Positions 2-13,698 of a stretch of DNA of 14,896 nucleotides are shown here, piece after piece (the stretch's first letter is position 1; each line of letters begins with the position of its first letter). Where the stretch lies: NCBI GenBank assembly GCA_020353515.1, contig CP070695.1, positions 2,115,575 to 2,130,470 on the forward strand, written 5' to 3'. The notes beneath the pieces were generated by a model. The model was not told the DNA's origin and did no database searches. It worked only from the letters and a program-made list of their open reading frames with translations. This DNA is from Candidatus Heimdallarchaeota archaeon. GTDB lineage: Archaea > Asgardarchaeota > Heimdallarchaeia > Hodarchaeales > Hodarchaeaceae. Both the position numbers and the translations under genes were made by a program.

Positions 2-3000
2 CATGGTAATACGACCATGGTTGTGAACGCCAGTTTACTCGCCGTTAATACCACGTGGTATGTCCTGTTAGACGCACCGAACTATCTTCTGGCATTCAAT
101 TTATCTAGGGGAGGTCAATATTTAGATTTTCCTTATGAGGCTAATGTAACAGATATTCTAGATTTAAACTTCCAAGTTCCAGAAACAGGGGGTAATTCTA
201 GTTATTGGATCGAGTATTTCACCTTACCAATTAATAGTAGTATTAATTTTAACTCTTTAGTGCTTTCATTTACTGAAACATGGGATATTAATAAGACAGT
301 TTCCCAAATTACAAATGTAAATGGTACTTACGATTTACAAGCGTTTTGGAAAAGTAGTGATAAGACCAAAGTTGGAACACTGACACGAAAATTGGATGTC
401 TTTATCAATACAACATTAACAATCAATTCCACTGATACTATTGAAGTCTTAATAGGAGAAAAAATTACTATCTGGGCGAATTATACCTCAAATCACAACT
501 CAACACTGAGTGATTTATCACATATTAATTATGCAAAGATTTGGTGTAATGCAAGTTGGCCTGACGGCACTAGACAGAATACAACTATGAATCAACCGAC
601 TGGAACATATTATAACTCCTCATTTACATCAGATATGGAAACTCCAGGTACTTCAGGGACAATTACAATTTCTACACAGTTAAGTTGGTTCGTTAACTGG
701 ACAAGGACGGTAACTGTTCTATTTGTTCAAAATACTACATTTTCTGTAGATGTAAAAGATCTCACTTTACAATGGCGAGAGAATGCTACAATAAAATTTG
801 ATTACAATGAAACAGGAGGAAACAGGATACCTGTAGCCACTGTCACCATTGTGGATACTAATGAAATTTTTACTTACTCTACTGGAAAGGATTTATTTCA
901 GTTAAATTCGACATCATTTCCAGGGGTTGATACATATGCAAATGTGATAATAAGGGCAAATAGCTCTGGATACCTTACACGTGAATGGTACTTTAATCTC
1001 ACGATTGCCCCAGGTCGTACCAATATAACAGGAAAGATAGGTAGTAATCAAGTTTTGAATGACAGCACTATAATTACTAAGAAGTTTTCGAATAGCTCGT
1101 ATGATACTGTTACTCTTAACTTACACTACTACCACAACCTCACGGGAGACCCTTTGGATATTGACATGCCAATACTAGATTCATCTATCCCTGTCACAAA
1201 TATACAAAAAGAATCGAATCTTTCGTGGAGTATTACTCTCAATCCAAACGAAACTGGTGTTTTTCTAATTAATTTCACATTTTTCTTGAATAATTATAGG
1301 AGTAGTATATTTGTCTTTCATCTAAGTGTCGTTAAAGCAGGAACTATAATTGAACATATACCTTTGGAAAACATTCAAGTCTATTATACTGAGTATTATG
1401 ACTTCTTCTTATTGTACAAGAACACAGAATATAATGAAAATGTAACTGGGTTAATAAAAGACTCTGGTATTACAATTAATAATTCCATGGTGGTTGATGT
1501 AAATCAAACAGATGAGGGGTATTGGTTCCGTTTCAATCCTTCTCCTTCAATGTTATCTTTAGGTCGATATTCGATCAATATCACCTTTTCCCATATTTAT
1601 CTCAATCCCAGCTCTATTGAAGTGACTTTTATCGTAGTAAATATGCCTACAAAACCTCTGAATATCACTAATTTCCGCTATAACCAATCTATTTTTGTTG
1701 AGGATGTCCTTTATATTGGTGGAGAAGGGTATCAAACCATCAGAGGACAGAATATTTCTAGCCTTGATACTCTTGTTCTAAGGATGAATGGTACCCTAGT
1801 AATGAAATCTTTGTACAACTATCAAGCAAGTGAAAATTGGTTTGATATCAACTTCACAACGACATCGTTTCATTATGGTAATTACTCCCTTACTTTGGAA
1901 ATAGGTAAGGTTGGTTTTCAAAATCAGACCATTAATTTCAATATAACATTGTTAGGCCGACAAATAATCCTTGAAGTTACCTTACCTGGAAAGAAGTTTG
2001 AACAAGGTGACCCCATTGAAATTACAGCTATCTTAACTTATGTACAGGAAATAGCTGGTGGTTTTGGCGCGGGATTATCACTTGCTCCCTTGGAGGCTGT
2101 CAATGTCTCTTTTTATGTCGTTCTGAAATATGAAAATGATACTAATCGGGTATTTGAAATCACAAATCAGACTAATGACCTGGGTCAAACATCATTCACA
2201 ATTGACGGTAAGTATACCCTTGGGGCTGTTAAATTCACCAATATTACCGTATGGAGTGGCCCCAGTTTATCAGGTTTACCCTCAAGTTATAGCATGTCAA
2301 GGGAAGAGCTCGAAGGATATCAAATCATAAAAATAATAGATCCACTCGAAATTATTGTCTCTGTGATCATAATAGGATCAATTCTGTTACTTTCTGTTGG
2401 AACCTTGACAGCGAGTAGTATTTTCCTAAATCGAAAACGAAAACAACGGAGTCAACTCATTCGGCGAAAACGACTGAAAATTGAACAAAGTTTTGAGGAT
2501 ATCAAATCTATCCGCTTATTAATCGCTCGTCATGAATCTGGACTACAATTTTATTCAGAAAAAACCATTGCAGAGTTAAAAACTGACACGGATGCACTGT
2601 CTGGAATGTCTGCAGCTTTGAGTACTTTTATGGAAGAGGTTTCAGACGGAATGCGATCACGTACTGAGGAGGAAAAAGAGAAGGAGAAAATTGAAGTTAT
2701 GAGTCGTGAAGGGCTGCATATGTTAATATGGCACGGTTCACGCTCGAGCTTCATAATCATTTCAGAAACAAGATTACCTGATTACTTCAAAGAACGTTTG
2801 GCAAAATTAGGTCGAGAAGTCGAATCCAAATATACTCATGATTTGGAAGACTTTTATAGGTCTGATCAGATACCTACTAATCAAATAAAGAAGATGATTC
2901 GCAAACATATTCCTCTGCACTATTTCTCAGCTTTTATCCTGAATGAGGGAGTGTTAACCCTAGAAAACATTAAATTGTCAAAGAAAGAAAAGAAAATGTT

Positions 3001-3184
3001 AAAGCTTATAAAAGAGATCCTTTTTCAGAAAGAGGGTGTACAGTTCTTTTTCAGTGAACAAATTATCTCACACTTGTCTAAGTACTACAACCGCAGTGAA
3101 GCAATCAAATTCTTAGACCGATCAATTGAAATTAACCTCTTAATCGAGGCCAGTCAAGAAGACATATTGAGTATCACGGAATAA
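2..3184 (+). CDS. Large single-pass membrane protein (5'-truncated): glycosylated beta-rich ectodomain, TM helix, cytoplasmic longin-like domain, possible winged-helix C-terminus
   Basis: The frame is open upstream of the ATG at 17 (H-G-N-T-T from position 2) and there is no signal peptide, so the true start probably lies outside the window. About 45 N-x-S/T sequons (manual count) occur before the TM helix IIVSVIIIGSILLLSVGTLTASSIFL (2351-2428), which is followed by the basic stretch NRKRKQRSQLIRRKRLK. The cytoplasmic part DIKSIRLLIARHESGLQFYS...DALSGMSAALSTFMEEV...LHMLIWHGSRSSFIIIS...FKERLAKLGREVESKY fits the beta-beta-alpha-beta-beta-beta-alpha longin pattern. Confidence 0.8.
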   Translation, partial: HGNTTMVVNASLLAVNTTWYVLLDAPNYLLAFNLSRGGQYLDFPYEANVTDILDLNFQVPETGGNSSYWIEYFTLPINSSINFNSLVLSFTETWDINKTVSQITNVNGTYDLQAFWKSSDKTKVGTLTRKLDVFINTTLTINSTDTIEVLIGEKITIWANYTSNHNSTLSDLSHINYAKIWCNASWPDGTRQNTTMNQPTGTYYNSSFTSDMETPGTSGTITISTQLSWFVNWTRTVTVLFVQNTTFSVDVKDLTLQWRENATIKFDYNETGGNRIPVATVTIVDTNEIFTYSTGKDLFQLNSTSFPGVDTYANVIIRANSSGYLTREWYFNLTIAPGRTNITGKIGSNQVLNDSTIITKKFSNSSYDTVTLNLHYYHNLTGDPLDIDMPILDSSIPVTNIQKESNLSWSITLNPNETGVFLINFTFFLNNYRSSIFVFHLSVVKAGTIIEHIPLENIQVYYTEYYDFFLLYKNTEYNENVTGLIKDSGITINNSMVVDVNQTDEGYWFRFNPSPSMLSLGRYSINITFSHIYLNPSSIEVTFIVVNMPTKPLNITNFRYNQSIFVEDVLYIGGEGYQTIRGQNISSLDTLVLRMNGTLVMKSLYNYQASENWFDINFTTTSFHYGNYSLTLEIGKVGFQNQTINFNITLLGRQIILEVTLPGKKFEQGDPIEITAILTYVQEIAGGFGAGLSLAPLEAVNVSFYVVLKYENDTNRVFEITNQTNDLGQTSFTIDGKYTLGAVKFTNITVWSGPSLSGLPSSYSMSREELEGYQIIKIIDPLEIIVSVIIIGSILLLSVGTLTASSIFLNRKRKQRSQLIRRKRLKIEQSFEDIKSIRLLIARHESGLQFYSEKTIAELKTDTDALSGMSAALSTFMEEVSDGMRSRTEEEKEKEKIEVMSREGLHMLIWHGSRSSFIIISETRLPDYFKERLAKLGREVESKYTHDLEDFYRSDQIPTNQIKKMIRKHIPLHYFSAFILNEGVLTLENIKLSKKEKKMLKLIKEILFQKEGVQFFFSEQIISHLSKYYNRSEAIKFLDRSIEINLLIEASQEDILSITE

Positions 3185-3202
3185 GGCACATTAAGGGATT
3201 TA

Positions 3203-4132
3203 ATGACAATGTCCAATAATTATTATCGCTTTTGGCTCTTGAACCATCAAGGATTATACATTTTTGATAAAAAACTGCATAAAAAAGTCATCTTAACAAA
3301 AGCTGAAGAAGATGCGTTGATTGCAGAGGTGTTTCAAGACCCAAAAGTAATATCAGAGGATGATACTACACTTTTTACTCGAGAATTACCCTCTTATTTC
3401 ACTAGGCTTCATTATCGAAAATATAAGAAAGACTTGTATATTCTTCTGACCGATGAATTGATTGATATTACAGAAGTTGATGCAAGGCTCCAACCTTGGA
3501 TCGAATTACGAAATCAACAAAGGGAACACCTTCAGGGTTTAACTCTTTCTATGTTTGATGATATTGAAGGACCTAAAGTAGTCTATAATAGTGGTACATT
3601 ACTATCAGAGAATGCTTTACTATTAGCAGTTCAAGGACAAACAATTTCTGCAATGGGACGAATGGTGGAATATACAAGTGGGTTTAAGGATCCCCTTAAC
3701 GTACCGAATCGTGAGGACTTGACCCACTTGAGCTACATCTTTTTACAACCAGCTCCTGACTCGAAAGATCCACGTATCGCAAAAATGGGAAGAATGACAA
3801 GCATCCATCTACTTTTCCTTTTAGGTTTTCATTTTGTCAATGAGACTCTTTTCCGGAGCTATCTGGAAGCTTTTCTTGACGAATGGGTCTATAATTGGAA
3901 CTCTCAGAGAGAAAATAGTCAGTCTTATCCAAAAGAAATTTTCGATGAATTGCTAGAAGATCTTCGATCCGCGATATCAACAGCAATTGATCTTACTACC
4001 CATGAAGAACGGGAAGAAGCGAAACTTAAGGAATATGTTATGGATTTATTGAGTCAAAACAAAGTTCTGAATTATCAAGTCCGAAGATTAAGAGAAAAAA
4101 TCAAAGAGCTAGAAAATCAGCTCTCCAATTAA
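3203..4132 (+). CDS. Longin-like + uDENN-like domain protein with C-terminal leucine zipper
   Basis: 309 aa ORF starting 18 nt after the upstream stop, with an AAGGGA SD-like motif at 3193-3198. The N-terminal YRFWLLNHQGLYIFDKK resembles the first hairpin of longins. The central LTLSMFDDIEGPKVVY resembles the F-x4-GP signature of uDENN longins. The C-terminus has Leu at every seventh residue five times. The start may be 3203 or 3209. Confidence 0.65.
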   Translation: MTMSNNYYRFWLLNHQGLYIFDKKLHKKVILTKAEEDALIAEVFQDPKVISEDDTTLFTRELPSYFTRLHYRKYKKDLYILLTDELIDITEVDARLQPWIELRNQQREHLQGLTLSMFDDIEGPKVVYNSGTLLSENALLLAVQGQTISAMGRMVEYTSGFKDPLNVPNREDLTHLSYIFLQPAPDSKDPRIAKMGRMTSIHLLFLLGFHFVNETLFRSYLEAFLDEWVYNWNSQRENSQSYPKEIFDELLEDLRSAISTAIDLTTHEEREEAKLKEYVMDLLSQNKVLNYQVRRLREKIKELENQLSN

Positions 4133-4263
4133 AGACAATACAAAATATTGAGAAAACATTGAAAATGAAATATATTCGAAGTATCGAAATCATTATTTTA
4201 TCAACTAGCTTAATATAATAAAAACGATAGAACATATTCATTGATTGTTAGGATGGTTATCTA

Positions 4264-5511
4264 ATGCGAGTTTTACATGTGCAAGGTAAAAATCTGAAAG
4301 AAATTAATGCTCCTTATGAATTTTTAAATGGCGATGTCTATGTCGTCGATAATAGTGATGTCAGTGTTGGATTGAAAAAGAAGGTCTATATCTGGCTTGG
4401 ATCCCAAGCTTTTGCAGATGACCGAGCGGTAGGCGCTTGGGCGGCTAAATGCTTGGATCTAGAGGATGAAGAAATTGACATTGATACTGAGGTTGAGGGC
4501 AATGAATCTGAAGAATTCAAAGGACTGCTGGATTTCGTGGTGGTCACAGGAGATACCCCTGGATTTTTAAAACATGTCGAAGTTAACAAGGAAGACATTT
4601 CCTACGCCCTCTACCGTGTTAGGGATATTGATCTTACTGATGGATCATCATCAGATGATATTGTGATTGAAAATATCCCCCTTACCCGAGAATCATTTGT
4701 CAGTGATGATGTTTTTGTCTTGGATGCCTATCACGACCTATACGTATGGGTTGGTTCTCAAGCCCAGGTTGGTGAGAAAGCTGCTGGCAATCGACTTGTG
4801 AGGAAATTTGATGTTGAACGGGAACGAAATCCTATGGTGTATACTATTAGTGAAGGGTATGAGCCAAAAGGCTTCTTTGAATTAGTGAATCAACTTGCTG
4901 ATTCTGGAGAAGTACGAACAGAGGATGCTGCTGATGTTGCTAAAGGAATCACTGGTAGTATTGCTGATCTATCGAGTGAGACTGCAGAGACAGGAATTGT
5001 TACACCTGTGACACCAAGGCCTGAACCAGGACATCCTCCCGTTACGCCTCCCCCTGAATTAGAACGCCCACTTATTTCAGAACCCATCCCCAGGCCTCCA
5101 ATCCCAGAACCAGAACCAGAATATACTCCCCCACCTCTGAAGACTCCGATTCCAACACCTCAACCAGAACCCAAACCTGTCGATCTAGGATTGGGCCCAA
5201 CAGGAGAACCCGCACCTAAAGCTAAAGCTGTGAAGCTATATTATATAGATGGAGAATTTGGAGAATTAGGTGGAAATGAGGACGCAGTTTTAGAAATCGA
5301 TGAAGGAACAAGAGTGGCAACCCTTTCTTTTGCAGAAGGAACAAGTCTTATTGCTCAACGGACAGCAGGACGACAAGCACGAGGAATCTGTAAAGCAGGT
5401 TTCCTTCTGAAAGCGGGATATCGAGTCGGGCAAAACTGTGATCTGAGAGAAGTTAAAGGTGAGCGAGGTATACACGACCGACTCTTACAAGAAGGACATA
5501 AATACAAATAA
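4264..5511 (+). CDS. Gelsolin-family actin regulator: two gelsolin domains, proline-rich linker, C-terminal divergent domain
   Basis: G1 motifs: NGDVYVVD...VYIWLGSQ...TEVEGNESEEF. The linker TGDTPGFLKHV resembles gelsolin GGVASGFKHV. G2 motifs: SDDVFVLDAYHDLYVWVGSQAQVGEKAAG...ISEGYEPKGF. Pro-rich segment at 5002-5178. Confidence 0.9.
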   Translation: MRVLHVQGKNLKEINAPYEFLNGDVYVVDNSDVSVGLKKKVYIWLGSQAFADDRAVGAWAAKCLDLEDEEIDIDTEVEGNESEEFKGLLDFVVVTGDTPGFLKHVEVNKEDISYALYRVRDIDLTDGSSSDDIVIENIPLTRESFVSDDVFVLDAYHDLYVWVGSQAQVGEKAAGNRLVRKFDVERERNPMVYTISEGYEPKGFFELVNQLADSGEVRTEDAADVAKGITGSIADLSSETAETGIVTPVTPRPEPGHPPVTPPPELERPLISEPIPRPPIPEPEPEYTPPPLKTPIPTPQPEPKPVDLGLGPTGEPAPKAKAVKLYYIDGEFGELGGNEDAVLEIDEGTRVATLSFAEGTSLIAQRTAGRQARGICKAGFLLKAGYRVGQNCDLREVKGERGIHDRLLQEGHKYK

Positions 5512-5524
5512 GATACCTTAAATC

Positions 5525-5552
5525 TTTTCCTTTTTTCCTTTTTTTGCGTTTT
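5525..5552 (+). terminator. Probable archaeal oligo-T terminator of the gelsolin gene
   Basis: TTTTCCTTTTTTCCTTTTTTTGCGTTTT begins 13 nt after the stop codon. Confidence 0.6.
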
Positions 5553-8719: not shown

Positions 8720-9043
8720 ATGACCAAAAATGAAGTTGATTCTGGGACAGAAAAAGACAGTATCCACTTTCTTGATTCAATAGAATTTCCACCACCCATT
8801 GAAAACATTGAATTATCTCCAACTGAACAACGAGTTTATCTACAATTATCATTAAAATTTCAAAAAATGTTAGACGATGCTCCTAGTTTTCAGATGGGTG
8901 CTTATCGATGGAATCAAGCACTTCCTATGATTCTCCAGAGATATGCTATAACTGCTGATGTATGGGAACGAATATCAGAAATTGGAGATCAAGATGACGA
9001 TATCCAAGCGCAATTGAATCAAATGATTGAAGAAATGGAGTAA
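8720..9043 (+). CDS. Small acidic, predicted helical hypothetical protein
   Basis: 107 aa ORF filling the gap between serS and the convergent UbiA gene, with its own TATA-like and SD-like elements. Confidence 0.75.
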   Translation: MTKNEVDSGTEKDSIHFLDSIEFPPPIENIELSPTEQRVYLQLSLKFQKMLDDAPSFQMGAYRWNQALPMILQRYAITADVWERISEIGDQDDDIQAQLNQMIEEME

Positions 9044-10044: not shown

Positions 10045-10833
10045 CTAAATATATGTTTTATCCTTGACAGGATGTTGAATATCAGCTTCGATAGCATCTT
10101 GGGCTTGATTTCTCATAGAGAGAGCCATTTGCTCAATTTTTTCAGCTTGGGCAAGAATAGGTTCAATACCAATATTTAACGAGGGAATAAGGTGATTCAA
10201 AACCTCAATCACTCTGGCAGCAGTCCGAACCTCTGGATAATGTTGACGAACTTCTCCTAAAATTACTATGACTTCGGAACGATTATACCAACCTTCATTT
10301 AGTAATACTGCACTTAATCCCTTAATTACTCCATGATCTAAAGGAGGGATATCTTTCTCTCTCAAATAATCTCTACACGATTCTGTTGTTCCTACTCCAT
10401 AGACACGATAGGGCATCTCTCTTGGAGATTGAGTATAATCACTCTTAAAACCTTCAACTGAAACAATACGTTCAATACCTTTTTCTTTAGACCAATTGAA
10501 TATTTTTTTACCTATTTCACGAGTAATAGGGGGATATTGAGGGACTTCAGATGCAAGGAGTGCCACTCGAATCTCTTGACTCGCGTAGATCCGTATTGGG
10601 AATTTAGGTTTAGAATAATATACCACACAAATCGCAGGGATTTGATTGCTATCACCTACAGCAACTTGATCAAGATTCCACTCATCTCGTCTCCCTGCAG
10701 ATTCAAGAATAATGTTTGCTGTAATAAGAGCGAGAGCACTTATGGAGGGAAAACATTCGATTAGTGTTCCCCCTTCTAAATCCATATCGATGACATCACG
10801 TATCTCAAAATAGTTAGAATTCATCATAATCAC
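10045..10833 (-). CDS. PAC2-family proteasome assembly chaperone (PbaA/PbaB-like)
   Basis: Motifs TLIECFPS, PKFPIRIYAS, IERIVSVEG, VYGVGTT, GVIKGLSAVLL, YPEVRTAARVIEVL and LAQAEKIE; C-terminus KTYI. The start may be GTG 10833 or ATG 10827/10824. Confidence 0.85.
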   Translation of the reverse strand: MIMMNSNYFEIRDVIDMDLEGGTLIECFPSISALALITANIILESAGRRDEWNLDQVAVGDSNQIPAICVVYYSKPKFPIRIYASQEIRVALLASEVPQYPPITREIGKKIFNWSKEKGIERIVSVEGFKSDYTQSPREMPYRVYGVGTTESCRDYLREKDIPPLDHGVIKGLSAVLLNEGWYNRSEVIVILGEVRQHYPEVRTAARVIEVLNHLIPSLNIGIEPILAQAEKIEQMALSMRNQAQDAIEADIQHPVKDKTYI

Positions 10834-10981
10834 TGAAATATGCTCTCTGTTAAAAGAGTAAAAACGTAATAATAAAGATTCCCTTTTCAGCTAAAAATTT
10901 AGCCCGAAAAAAGTACTTTTATCTCAATTTGAAGCCCAATGTATTTTTGAATTTCTTTCCCTTGGATTGAGAAATATTCAG

Positions 10982-10997
10982 AAAAAAAGAAAATAAA
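10982..10997 (-). terminator. Probable oligo-T terminator of hsp20-cdc48
   Basis: The minus strand reads TTTATTTTCTTTTTTT about 15 nt after the cdc48 stop. Confidence 0.55.
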
Positions 10998-11011
10998 GAG
11001 AGGAGGGCTCC

Positions 11012-13213
11012 CTAAACAAAAGATAAACGATCTACTTCCTCTTGCATACCCTCTAGTTTTTGAGTAGGAGTAATCCGTCCTGTTTTACGAGTACCTAGAA
11101 TCTTATCATAAGCCTCCTCAAAATGTCTTGCAGAGACTTTGTATCCGCTAAAATCCTCGTCTTTCTCTTTTATGCTAGGGAGATGATCTTCTATCGCGTT
11201 GAGAACAGCTTCGTGACATAGCCCAGCCAAATCTGCTCCTGAAAAATTCTCTGTTTTTTTGCTTAATGCATCCAAATCAGTATCTGCTGCTAAGGGTACC
11301 TCTCTTGTATGAATCTTGAGAATCTCTAAACGAGCGGTTTGATCAGGAAGACCAATAGTAATTATCTTGTCAAATCTGCCTGGCCGTAACAGCGCAGGGT
11401 CGATCATATCGGGCCGATTTGTCGCTGCAATAACGACGACCCCTTTAAGTTCTTCTAATCCATCAAGTTCAGTTAAGAATTGACTAATCATCCGTTCTGT
11501 TACCCCTGAATCGAAAGATTTACCTCTTACAGGTGCAATGGAATCAATTTCATCAAAGAAGATAATCGAAGGGGCTGCTTGTCGAGCTTTACGAAACACT
11601 TCACGAATCCCTTTTTCGGATTCACCAACCCATTTTGATAGCAATTCTGGACCTTTTACACTGATAAAGTTTGCTTGTGTTTCATGAGCAACTGCTTTCG
11701 CTAAAAGGGTTTTACCTGTCCCAGGAGGTCCATAGAGGAGAATCCCTTTGGGCTGTTGAGCTCCCATATGAGAGAAAAATTTGGGATGCTTTAGGGGAAG
11801 TTCAATACTTTGTCTGATTTCCTTTTTCTCTGAAATAAGTCCTCCAACATCTTTCCACCCGATATTTGGGACTTCAACAAAGACCTCCCGTAGAGCAGAA
11901 GGTTGAATTCCTAGGAGAGCTTCATTGAAGTCATTTTGTGAAACTTCAAGCTCACTCAAGATGTGAGCAGGAATCGTATCTTCCTCAAGATTCAATTTCG
12001 GAATTACTTTCCTTAATGAGTGCATTGCAGCCTCTTTAACTAATTGCTCAAGATCAGCTCCAACAAAGCCATGAGTTACTTCTGAAAGATAATCCAAGTT
12101 AACATCATCTGCTAGTGGCATTCCTCGAGTATGAATCAGTAAGATTTCCTCTCTACCATGTTTATTCGGAATACCTATCTCAATCTCACGATCAAAACGC
12201 CCTCCTCGCCGTAACGCAGGATCTAAAGCATTAACACGGTTAGTTGCACCAATTACGACAACATCACCACGATCACTCAATCCATCCATGTTTGACAAGA
12301 GTTGAGCAACCACTCGTCGCTCTACTTCTCCAGTGACTTCCGATCTTTTTGGTGCAATTGAATCTATCTCATCAATAAAGATGATACTAGGAGAATTCTC
12401 TTTTGCTTCATCAAAAAATTGACGTATCCTCTGTTCACTCTCTCCATAGAATTTTGACATGAATTCAGGTCCAGAGACAGAAATAAAGTGGGAATCTGTT
12501 TCTGTAGCTACTGCTTTCGCAAGTAAGGTTTTTCCAGTACCAGGAGGACCATGCAATAATACCCCTCTTGGGGGTGTGACTCCAAGACGTTTGAATAGTT
12601 CGGGATGTCTCATTGGAAGTTCAATCATTTCACGAACTTTTTGGATTTCCTCACCCAATCCCCCAATGTCCTCATATCTTACTCTCTGTAATGTTTCTTG
12701 CTTAATATCTTTAACTGGGGTCTGTGAGATCGCAACTCGAGTATTTTCTTGCATAAATACAGCTCCACTACTCGGGGATATTTTTGAGACAACAAGAATT
12801 ATTCGTTGATTGTAAACAGGAATTTCAATGAAATCACCTTTAGTAAGAACACGACCCATTAGAATATGTTTGAGATGTCTTTCCCCCCCTTGGATTCGTA
12901 AGTTCTGAATAGGGGCGAATTCTATACGAGTAGCGTTTTTGGGTTCAATAGAAACAATCTCAATAGTGTCATCTATTCCCACTCCAGCATTACGACGTGT
13001 GCTACCATCTATACGAGCGATTCCTGTATTACGATCACCGGCATATCCTGGCCAATAAATAGCAGCTGTACGGCGTTTTCCAATTATCTGTAGAGCGTCA
13101 CCAGCAGAGATGTCAAATTTTTCAGCAATTTCAGGGTCAATACGAATAATTCCCCGTCCAACATCACGTGCGGCGGCTTCTCTTACTTTACATTCAAATG
13201 TATCATTAACCAT
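11012..13213 (-). CDS. cdc48: CDC48/VCP (VAT) family double-ring AAA+ ATPase
   Basis: N-domain [11 protein letters not shown]...[10 protein letters not shown]; two GPPGTGKT Walker A motifs; Walker B IIFIDEID and IIFFDEID; SRH ATNR...[11 protein letters not shown] and [11 protein letters not shown]; SD AGGAG at 13224-13228 (minus strand). Confidence 0.97.
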
Positions 13214-13266
13214 GGTAAATCCACTCCTTCTTGGTATAAATTGAAAATTTGGTTCTCAATTAGAGA

Positions 13267-13698
13267 CTATTCAACATTAACTTTGGTTTTAGGAACCTTA
13301 TCAACAAAGGGGGCGGTGATTGTCAAGATACCTGCTTTAAGGAGAGCTTTTATCTCGTTTGGACGTATGCGTTTCTTAAAATAGAAATGATGTCTGTAAT
13401 GGTTTTTAAATTCAGTACCCTGAGCTGAAAACCATAATTCATCATTTGTAGCCTCTAGATTGATCTCGTCTCGTGAGATCCCAGGTATTTCCATAGTTAT
13501 ATTGTATTTCTCTTGATCACGTTTAACTTGAGTAATAGGAACCCGAGCCCCCTTATTAATCCAATCTCCCGAGTGCCAAAATCCCTTTTTGAAAAAAGGC
13601 TTCATTCTTGGAAATGTTTTCCAGAAAGTATGAAAGGGTGGGAAACAATGAAAATTAAAATCATTATCTTCATTACGATCATTTGTCTTATCATTCAT
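13267..13698 (-). CDS. hsp20: Small heat shock protein (Hsp20/alpha-crystallin domain)
   Basis: YNITMEIPGISRDEINL...IKALLKAGILTITAP, with a C-terminal V-x-V (IXI-type) motif KVNVE. Located 53 nt upstream of cdc48. Confidence 0.9.
   Translation of the reverse strand: MNDKTNDRNEDNDFNFHCFPPFHTFWKTFPRMKPFFKKGFWHSGDWINKGARVPITQVKRDQEKYNITMEIPGISRDEINLEATNDELWFSAQGTEFKNHYRHHFYFKKRIRPNEIKALLKAGILTITAPFVDKVPKTKVNVE

Follow-up and report, generated by a model that had tools for sequence, protein, structure and literature searches.

We describe here a locus of an Asgard archaeon, Candidatus Heimdallarchaeota archaeon (NCBI GenBank assembly GCA_020353515.1, contig CP070695.1, positions 2,115,575 to 2,130,470 of the forward strand), at which a surface glycoprotein with a longin domain in its tail, a soluble protein with two longin domains and an extended gelsolin are encoded side by side. 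The stretch of DNA that we analysed, referred to below as the window, is 14,896 nucleotides (nt) long and is exactly one contig of a 4.94-Mb metagenome-assembled genome (MAG), in which 114 contigs are strung together with 100-N spacers. The ends of the window are therefore contig edges, such that the first gene is truncated at its 5′ end and distances measured across spacers are meaningless. The three genes are co-directional on the + strand, as are all features of the window given below unless stated otherwise: ORF1 at 17-3184 (with a frame open from position 2), ORF2 at 3203-4132 and ORF3, the gelsolin gene, at 4264-5511. The ORF1 frame (2..3184) comprises the 3′ 1055 codons of a type I surface glycoprotein of ~1530 amino acids (aa), the 5′ end of which is missing at the contig edge, and ORF2 (3203..4132) encodes a soluble protein of 309 aa. 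The ORF1-ORF2 junction (3185..3202) is 18 nt long without a T-tract, the gap between ORF2 and the gelsolin gene (4133..4263) is 131 nt long, and neither contains a run of at least five T residues. Oligo-T tracts (T6, T7 and T6; 5525-5552) begin ~15 nt 3′ of the gelsolin stop codon and are likely an archaeal terminator. The coordinates thus confirm the layout in a preliminary description of this DNA, which had noted three + strand genes separated by 18 and 131 nt, with strong T-tracts only after the third.

The AlphaFold2 (AF2) model of ORF2, with a predicted local distance difference test score (pLDDT) of 81, contains two modules of the longin type, followed by a terminal helix of 65 residues. 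The first module (3215..3529; residues ~5-109) is SNARE/sigma-adaptin/roadblock-like and has no GP motif, and its matches in VIA are VAMP7 (Z 11.4), Sec22 (10.4), Gse1 (10.1) and MP1-p14 (9.5). The second module (3530..3910; residues ~110-236) is of the FLCN/NPRL2/SMCR8 type: it matches the Roadblock-Longin protein of Lokiarchaeota (8yqg in the Protein Data Bank, PDB; Z 14.2), the FLCN complex (6nzd_H, 11.9), Lst4 (11.6), GATOR1 (10.9) and C9orf72-SMCR8 (9.9), and its shape neighbours in the Atlas include archaeal clusters in which PF11704 Folliculin is found in 23% of members and PF06218 NPR2 in 19%. Pfam yielded nothing for the ORF2 longins, and the sole match in a PDB profile search with ORF2 was a GCN4 zipper chimera, at a weak E value of 0.29. 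The terminal coiled coil or leucine zipper (3932..4126; residues 244-308) is modelled by AF2 as one long helix. The preliminary description had assigned a longin tail to ORF1, longin and uDENN domains to ORF2 and a gelsolin to ORF3; Pfam, AF2, VIA and Foldseek bear out the longin tail, the ORF2 longins and the gelsolin, but the uDENN label had to be dropped for want of a DENN core, because only helices (H215-235 and H244-308) follow the longin and no DENN family in Pfam matches. A tri-longin guanine nucleotide exchange factor (GEF), as in Mon1, Ccz1, Fuzzy and Inturned, was likewise rejected, since ORF2 has two longins and its whole chain reached Foldseek TM scores of 0.22-0.26 with CCZ1 and Fuzzy. 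We found none of the longer, fused forms of ORF2 (542-2000 aa), an absence that is weak evidence.

The second longin of ORF2 contains the GP motif FDDIEGP (3554-3574; residues 118-124). According to a published report (PMC12290439), the motif is specific to one class of Heimdall longins and to the longins of the GTPase-activating proteins (GAPs) FLCN, NPRL2, SMCR8 and C9orf72. In the AF2 model of ORF2, the motif sits between strands E112-119 and E123-129, that is, at the β1-β2 turn. D120, G123 and P124 are invariant in 32 ORF2 orthologues and 10 outgroup homologues, and F-D-D-x-x-G-P (residues 118-124) is invariant in the orthologues. Among the arginines of the orthologues, R197 is invariant and both R170 and R191 are nearly so, R191 and R197 are conserved in most homologues, and a D-x-R-I...G-R motif is common to most of the outgroup homologues. 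The named ones among the 53 homologues of ORF2 come nearly all from MAGs of the Heimdall group or Hodarchaeales, with a few labelled Thorarchaeota or Promethearchaeota, and full-length orthologues occur in a single genus of the Genome Taxonomy Database. From fold and motif, we consider domain 2 of ORF2 to be a putative lineage-specific Asgard longin of the FLCN/NPRL2/SMCR8 type with a GP motif. The outgroup relatives of this GP-longin are 250-280 aa long, have an extra C-terminal domain and are encoded among Rag/Ras-like GTPase genes. Neither Pfam nor a comparison by hhalign with the gelsolin repeats identified this C-terminal domain as a gelsolin.

ORF1 aligns with residues 485-1529 of a 1531-aa orthologue, so that ~480 N-terminal residues are missing; its full-length relatives are 1400-1550 aa or longer. 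The outer part that remains, 790 residues, has 45 NxS/T sequons where 14.7 are expected from composition, and a hydrophobic signal or anchor is present at the N terminus of the full-length orthologues. Pfam has no family for ORF1, nor for three full-length orthologues. An ORF elsewhere in the assembly (G000:C1:1270773-1271536), with a signal-peptide-like start and reaching another contig end, is a candidate for the missing 5′ end, with 38% identity to residues 7-254 of a full-length orthologue. A transmembrane helix (2351..2425; residues ~779-803) has its hydropathy peak of 2.68 at residue 779 and is helical in the AF2 model; the basic stretch NRKRKQR... right after it places the tail in the cytoplasm. 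The tail, folded with AF2 from a 20-sequence alignment, contains a longin domain without a GP motif (2507..2923; residues ~831-969) in which the topology is β-β-α-β-β-β-α with no N-terminal helix (E43-50, E55-60, H69-89, E102-108, E111-117, E121-127 and H134-149 in the numbering of the model). Indeed, the top VIA matches of the tail are longins (synbindin, Z 12.7; sedlin, 10.9; Sec22, 10.8; VAMP7, 10.6), and Foldseek reported VAMP7 and Sec22b, each with a probability of 1.00. Helices come next in the model, and the AF2 secondary structure and VIA also point to a C-terminal winged-helix-like domain (2924..3163; residues ~970-1049). This domain matches the winged-helix part of TbtB (Z 8.7; 77 residues, rmsd 1.9), a match that is no more than one of general fold.

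The two ends of ORF1 differ substantially in conservation. Identity in the tail is 53-85% across 20 relatives; within the genus it is 70-94%, compared to 25-77% in the ectodomain, and in one relative the tail is 93.5% identical and the ectodomain 41-49%. The open frames of ORF1 relatives also vary in length, from ~1440 to 2265 aa. The pattern is that of a protein with a conserved end for signalling and an outer end that changes fast, and the divergence and length variation of the ectodomain are as expected if diversifying selection or domain shuffling acts on a surface protein. The tail itself belongs to a family of 78 clusters (at 50% identity), in which it is mostly C-terminal in full-length members of roughly 1,100-3,500 aa.

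ORF1 and ORF2 adjoin wherever both are assembled, and the gap between them is 0-58 nt, without a T5 run, in 16 of 16 orthologous loci. This is the only tight junction of the block, as the remaining co-directional gaps are 131-199 nt. From this anatomy, ORF1 and ORF2 look like an operon, and we infer that they are co-transcribed as one unit. Among sequencing runs, the segment at 2800-4600 is listed for DNA of sediment metagenomes and for none of RNA. Conservation of gene order had been suggested as a check on the trio as a whole, and the outcome is mixed. In 18 of the 19 loci of the genus that are assembled, the trio is unbroken and runs in one direction, but the genes downstream of it, encoding an MFS transporter, seryl-tRNA synthetase (SerRS), a small protein, UbiA, PAC2, Cdc48 and Hsp20, keep their order equally well, such that the entire ten-gene block is conserved to the same extent. 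Co-loss of the trio in three members of the genus was considered and rejected, because these genomes also lack SerRS or have it at a contig end; the absence thus reflects assembly rather than biology.

We consider the best explanation of the locus to be that ORF1 and ORF2 form a unit that regulates a small GTPase encoded in trans, with the gelsolin as a conserved neighbour, and we hold this at about even confidence. ORF1 would be a fast-evolving, heavily N-glycosylated, single-pass surface protein, and its conserved tail, with longin and winged helix, may provide a docking platform or an anchor at the membrane. For ORF2, dimerisation through the zipper is probable; its target would be a small GTPase of the Ras/Rag/Arf-like kind that is encoded elsewhere, and its most likely role is that of a GAP. 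The gelsolin would probably be expressed from its own promoter, with any coupling to ORF1-ORF2 occurring through a GTPase in trans. The GP motif, together with the Ras/Rag neighbours of both the tail family and the ORF2 family, is what leads us to read ORF1-ORF2 as a membrane-anchored GTPase regulator, probably a GAP. The preliminary description had also proposed that the longins act on GTPases, and this proposal gains support from the motif and from the GTPase neighbours of paralogues and outgroup homologues.

The genome to which the window belongs encodes seven longin-tailed giant proteins and 58 Ras-family genes. A Ras-family gene lies within 2.5 kb of three of the seven giants, compared to 6% of all large ORFs (P ∼0.006, post hoc). 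Directly beside two of the giants are tandem pairs of Ras/Rab-like GTPase genes on the same strand (G000:C1:2090477-2094193 and 2428144-2436254), and a Ras gene follows one longin-tailed paralogue in another genome. Similarly, in four other families, homologues of ORF2 domain 2 that have a single longin are encoded with Ras/Rag-like GTPase genes at their flanks. The role of roadblock and longin dimers as platforms for GTPases (PMC10933270) fits this reading of ORF1-ORF2; it has also been noted that GTPases are hard to match to their regulators from Asgard genomes (PMC10933270). The recurrence of the tail family beside Ras-like GTPases provides candidate client GTPases, foremost those encoded next to longin-tailed paralogues at G000:C1:2090477-2091631 and 2434995-2436254.

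Comparison with known systems shows both what ORF1-ORF2 share with them and where they depart. The closest of these are the eukaryotic longin GAP complexes (FLCN-FNIP, GATOR1 with NPRL2-NPRL3, and SMCR8-C9orf72) and the Heimdall GP-motif longins, the latter described computationally (PMC12290439). ORF2 domain 2 has the same fold as these (Z 10.9-11.9), and ORF2 resembles them in the position of its GP motif at the β1-β2 turn, in having conserved arginines downstream and a non-GP longin available as a partner, and in that its homologues lie beside Rag/Ras-like GTPases. However, ORF2 differs from them in placing two longins in one chain with a zipper, and in the protein that it is paired with, here a giant surface glycoprotein with a longin tail instead of a scaffold at the lysosome. 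The best structural match of ORF2 domain 2, the Lokiarchaeota Roadblock-Longin protein (PDB 8yqg and 8yqk; Z 14.2 over 148 residues, rmsd 3.1), shares the two-module layout: a roadblock or longin-like domain is at the N terminus, and behind it lies a longin, which in the Lokiarchaeota protein dimerises. Unlike that protein, module 1 of ORF2 has longin topology with no N-terminal helix, and a 65-residue coiled coil is added; the PDB profile search found no similarity between the two at the level of sequence. For ORF1, the parallels are MglB-MglA and the SRX domain of SR-alpha with SR-beta, in which the longin/roadblock fold is a docking or regulatory surface for a membrane small GTPase. Both MglB and SRX are among the structural matches of the ORF1 tail, but here the longin, with a winged helix after it, makes up the cytoplasmic end of a glycoprotein that is 1,400 to ~2,250 aa long, and the ORF1-ORF2 locus encodes no cognate GTPase.

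Several points weigh against a GTPase regulator of this kind. In contrast to FLCN, SMCR8 and related proteins, ORF2 has no DENN module; R191 and R197 are no more than candidates for its arginine finger; and the AF2 model of the ORF1 tail is of moderate confidence (pLDDT 69). The two longins of ORF2 could pair with each other in cis, in which case the ORF1 tail may be unneeded as a partner. There is no GTPase gene on this 14.9-kb contig, the nearest being ~24 kb off across contig breaks, and the enrichment of GTPase genes near longin-tailed giants comes from seven loci in one genome and was tested after being seen. Moreover, since the whole ten-gene block is conserved within one genus, adjacency of the trio alone is weak evidence. 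A predicted complex of the ORF1 tail (model residues 37-266) with residues 1-245 of ORF2 scored ipSAE 0.00 and 0.00; made without controls, it counts neither way.

Some of the same evidence could be explained if the three genes were neighbours merely by descent, with the tail acting in sorting, insertion or clustering of the glycoprotein, ORF2 in an unrelated cytoplasmic GTPase pathway and the gelsolin independently of both. Longins are known to serve such sorting, insertion and clustering roles in SNAREs or SR-alpha, and the best structural matches of the ORF1 tail are indeed longins of the TRAPP and SNARE type, not GAP longins. The synteny shared with unrelated housekeeping genes agrees with this explanation, as do the other longin-tailed giants of the genome, which have no ORF2-like neighbour, and the relatives of ORF2 that are found elsewhere in GTPase clusters without a receptor. 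It does not account for a junction between ORF1 and ORF2 that is uniquely tight and free of T-tracts in every one of the 16 loci, nor for the restriction of full-length ORF2 to the genus that has this ORF1 orthologue, and we regard it as rather unlikely, although it is the nearest competitor to a membrane-anchored regulator.

ORF3 begins with a core of two gelsolin domains (4264..4908; residues 1-215), identified by Pfam in two stretches (PF00626, E 3.4e-19) and by the match of residues 2-212 to the Heimdall two-domain gelsolin Heim2DGel (7whf_G, E 2e-91). Its two domains, G1 and G2, match each other in hhalign with a probability of 93%. Between them is a WH2-like motif, FLKHVE (residues 101-106), which is also present in the orthologue in genome G065 and for which the counterpart in human gelsolin is FKHV (PMC9433394). 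The activities of Heim2DGel on actin, namely capping, severing and sequestering, are controlled by Ca2+ (PMC9433394). ORF3 is the Heimdall-type two-domain gelsolin (2DGel) of this lineage and is probably Ca2+-regulated. It resembles Heim2DGel (PDB 7whf; PMC9433394) in having two gelsolin domains with a WH2-like motif between, but differs in the addition of a proline-rich linker (4999..5193; residues ~246-310, 40% Pro) and a 98-aa domain, termed domain X (5215..5508; residues 318-415). Most Heimdall 2DGels are plain, with 205-260 aa; the fusion of 2DGel, linker and domain X is a feature of this genus, and another family has it in some of its members.

The preliminary description had gone further and joined the gelsolin to the longin proteins in a single surface-to-cytoskeleton module, in which the ORF1 tail pairs with ORF2, the two together steer actin remodelling by the gelsolin, and the three genes are co-regulated. 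The operon-like ORF1-ORF2 junction accords with co-regulation of the first two genes, but the gap between ORF2 and the gelsolin gene is of a different kind, 114-313 nt long in the orthologous loci and with a T5+ run in 7 of 16. In the window, this gap contains a TATA-like sequence, TTAATATAATAAAAA (4210-4224), and AGGATGG (4250-4256), and AT-rich TATA-like boxes lie 5′ of the gelsolin ATG in several orthologous loci. The earlier suggestion that the AT-rich 131-nt gap could hold a separate gelsolin promoter thus holds up, and we consider such a promoter probable. T-tracts follow the gelsolin gene in all 16 orthologous loci. Transcription into the gelsolin gene by read-through is possible, as there is no strong T-tract in the gap of the window, nor in the gaps of 9 of 16 loci, and the near-constant contiguity of the trio is also in keeping with a three-gene module. 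A link through GTPases is conceivable as well: elsewhere in the genome, two GTPase genes lie within 22 nt of a gene for a one-domain gelsolin with a PT-rich tail, and a Ras GTPase gene is within 49 nt of a stand-alone domain X gene, as it is in a sister family, which could provide a bridge between longins and gelsolin. However, MFS, SerRS, PAC2, Cdc48 and Hsp20 are just as syntenic as the trio; in genome G065, a different gene precedes that for gelsolin, on a contig separate from that of ORF2; and at 17 2DGel loci from six other Heimdall families, none has a longin, tail or Ras gene as a neighbour. The claim that the gelsolin belongs to the unit is therefore not supported, and we find a full surface-to-cytoskeleton module improbable. 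The gelsolin part of the locus adds a new extended 2DGel architecture but does not amount to a pathway.

Relatives of domain X form a pan-Asgard family of ~100 aa: it is matched in 323 of 400 genomes of Asgard archaea, for the most part by stand-alone proteins. We found no Pfam or PDB match for domain X, and a profile comparison by hhalign, made to see whether it is a further gelsolin repeat, was negative with both G1 and G2 (probability <1%). Among its look-alikes by Atlas features is a cluster of 104 aa with PF00626 in 28% of its members, a hint at a degenerate gelsolin. A weak hhalign match (probability 33%) to the C-terminal domain of the outgroup longin proteins is a lead only.

The presence of domain X allows one further proposal, in which a trans-encoded Ras/Rag-like GTPase bridges the locus: the glycoprotein would recruit ORF2 to the membrane to switch the GTPase, and domain X would be a GTPase-binding effector module. 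The proposed effector role derives from a stand-alone, 93-aa form of domain X encoded 49 nt upstream of a Ras gene, and we see this bridge as a long shot. If true, it would provide a path from receptor to GTPase switch to actin severing in a close relative of eukaryotes, and thus a precursor to the Rho/Arf-type regulation of cortical actin. The stand-alone domain X protein of this genome, with a Ras GTPase gene (G000:C1:867463-867966) 49 nt downstream, has a similarly placed counterpart in the sister family; in family f6 a Ras gene is nearby as well, but not in more distant Asgard lineages. At the one-domain gelsolin locus (G000:C1:2587516-2589810), the protein with one gelsolin repeat and the PT-rich tail is 313 aa long. 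The gene for a Ras-family GTPase begins 22 nt downstream of it, with one for an Arf-like GTPase behind, and a gene for a domain-X protein and another Ras gene are located 3-6 kb upstream.

Longin GAP/GEF platforms and Ca2+-regulated gelsolins are signature systems of eukaryotes, and the locus bears on the question of how small-GTPase switches first became tied to membranes and surface cues. The class of GP-longins and extended 2DGels are already published, and we found no description of a longin-tailed surface receptor paired with a GP-longin in the literature searched. New in this analysis are the control for block synteny, the junction statistics, the outgroup gelsolin loci, the enrichment of GTPases near the tail family, the Ras/Rag-like GTPase neighbours of the outgroup relatives of ORF2 and the pan-Asgard spread of domain X. 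If ORF1 and ORF2 do pair, they would be a concrete case of receptor-anchored GTPase regulation in Hodarchaeales.

The genes 3′ of the trio encode the MFS transporter, SerRS, UbiA, PAC2, Cdc48, Hsp20 and an arylsulfotransferase-like protein. The statement in the preliminary description that neither a GTPase nor an actin gene lies in the window was upheld by a Pfam scan of its ten large ORFs, none of which matches the Ras or actin families. Between the SerRS and UbiA genes is an ORF of 107 aa (8720-9043, + strand), which most genomes of the genus have conserved at this position, with 50-78% identity. Three proteostasis genes, for PAC2 (a member of the proteasome assembly chaperone family), Cdc48 and Hsp20, are grouped in one direction on the opposite strand (10045-13698, - strand), and this block is conserved.

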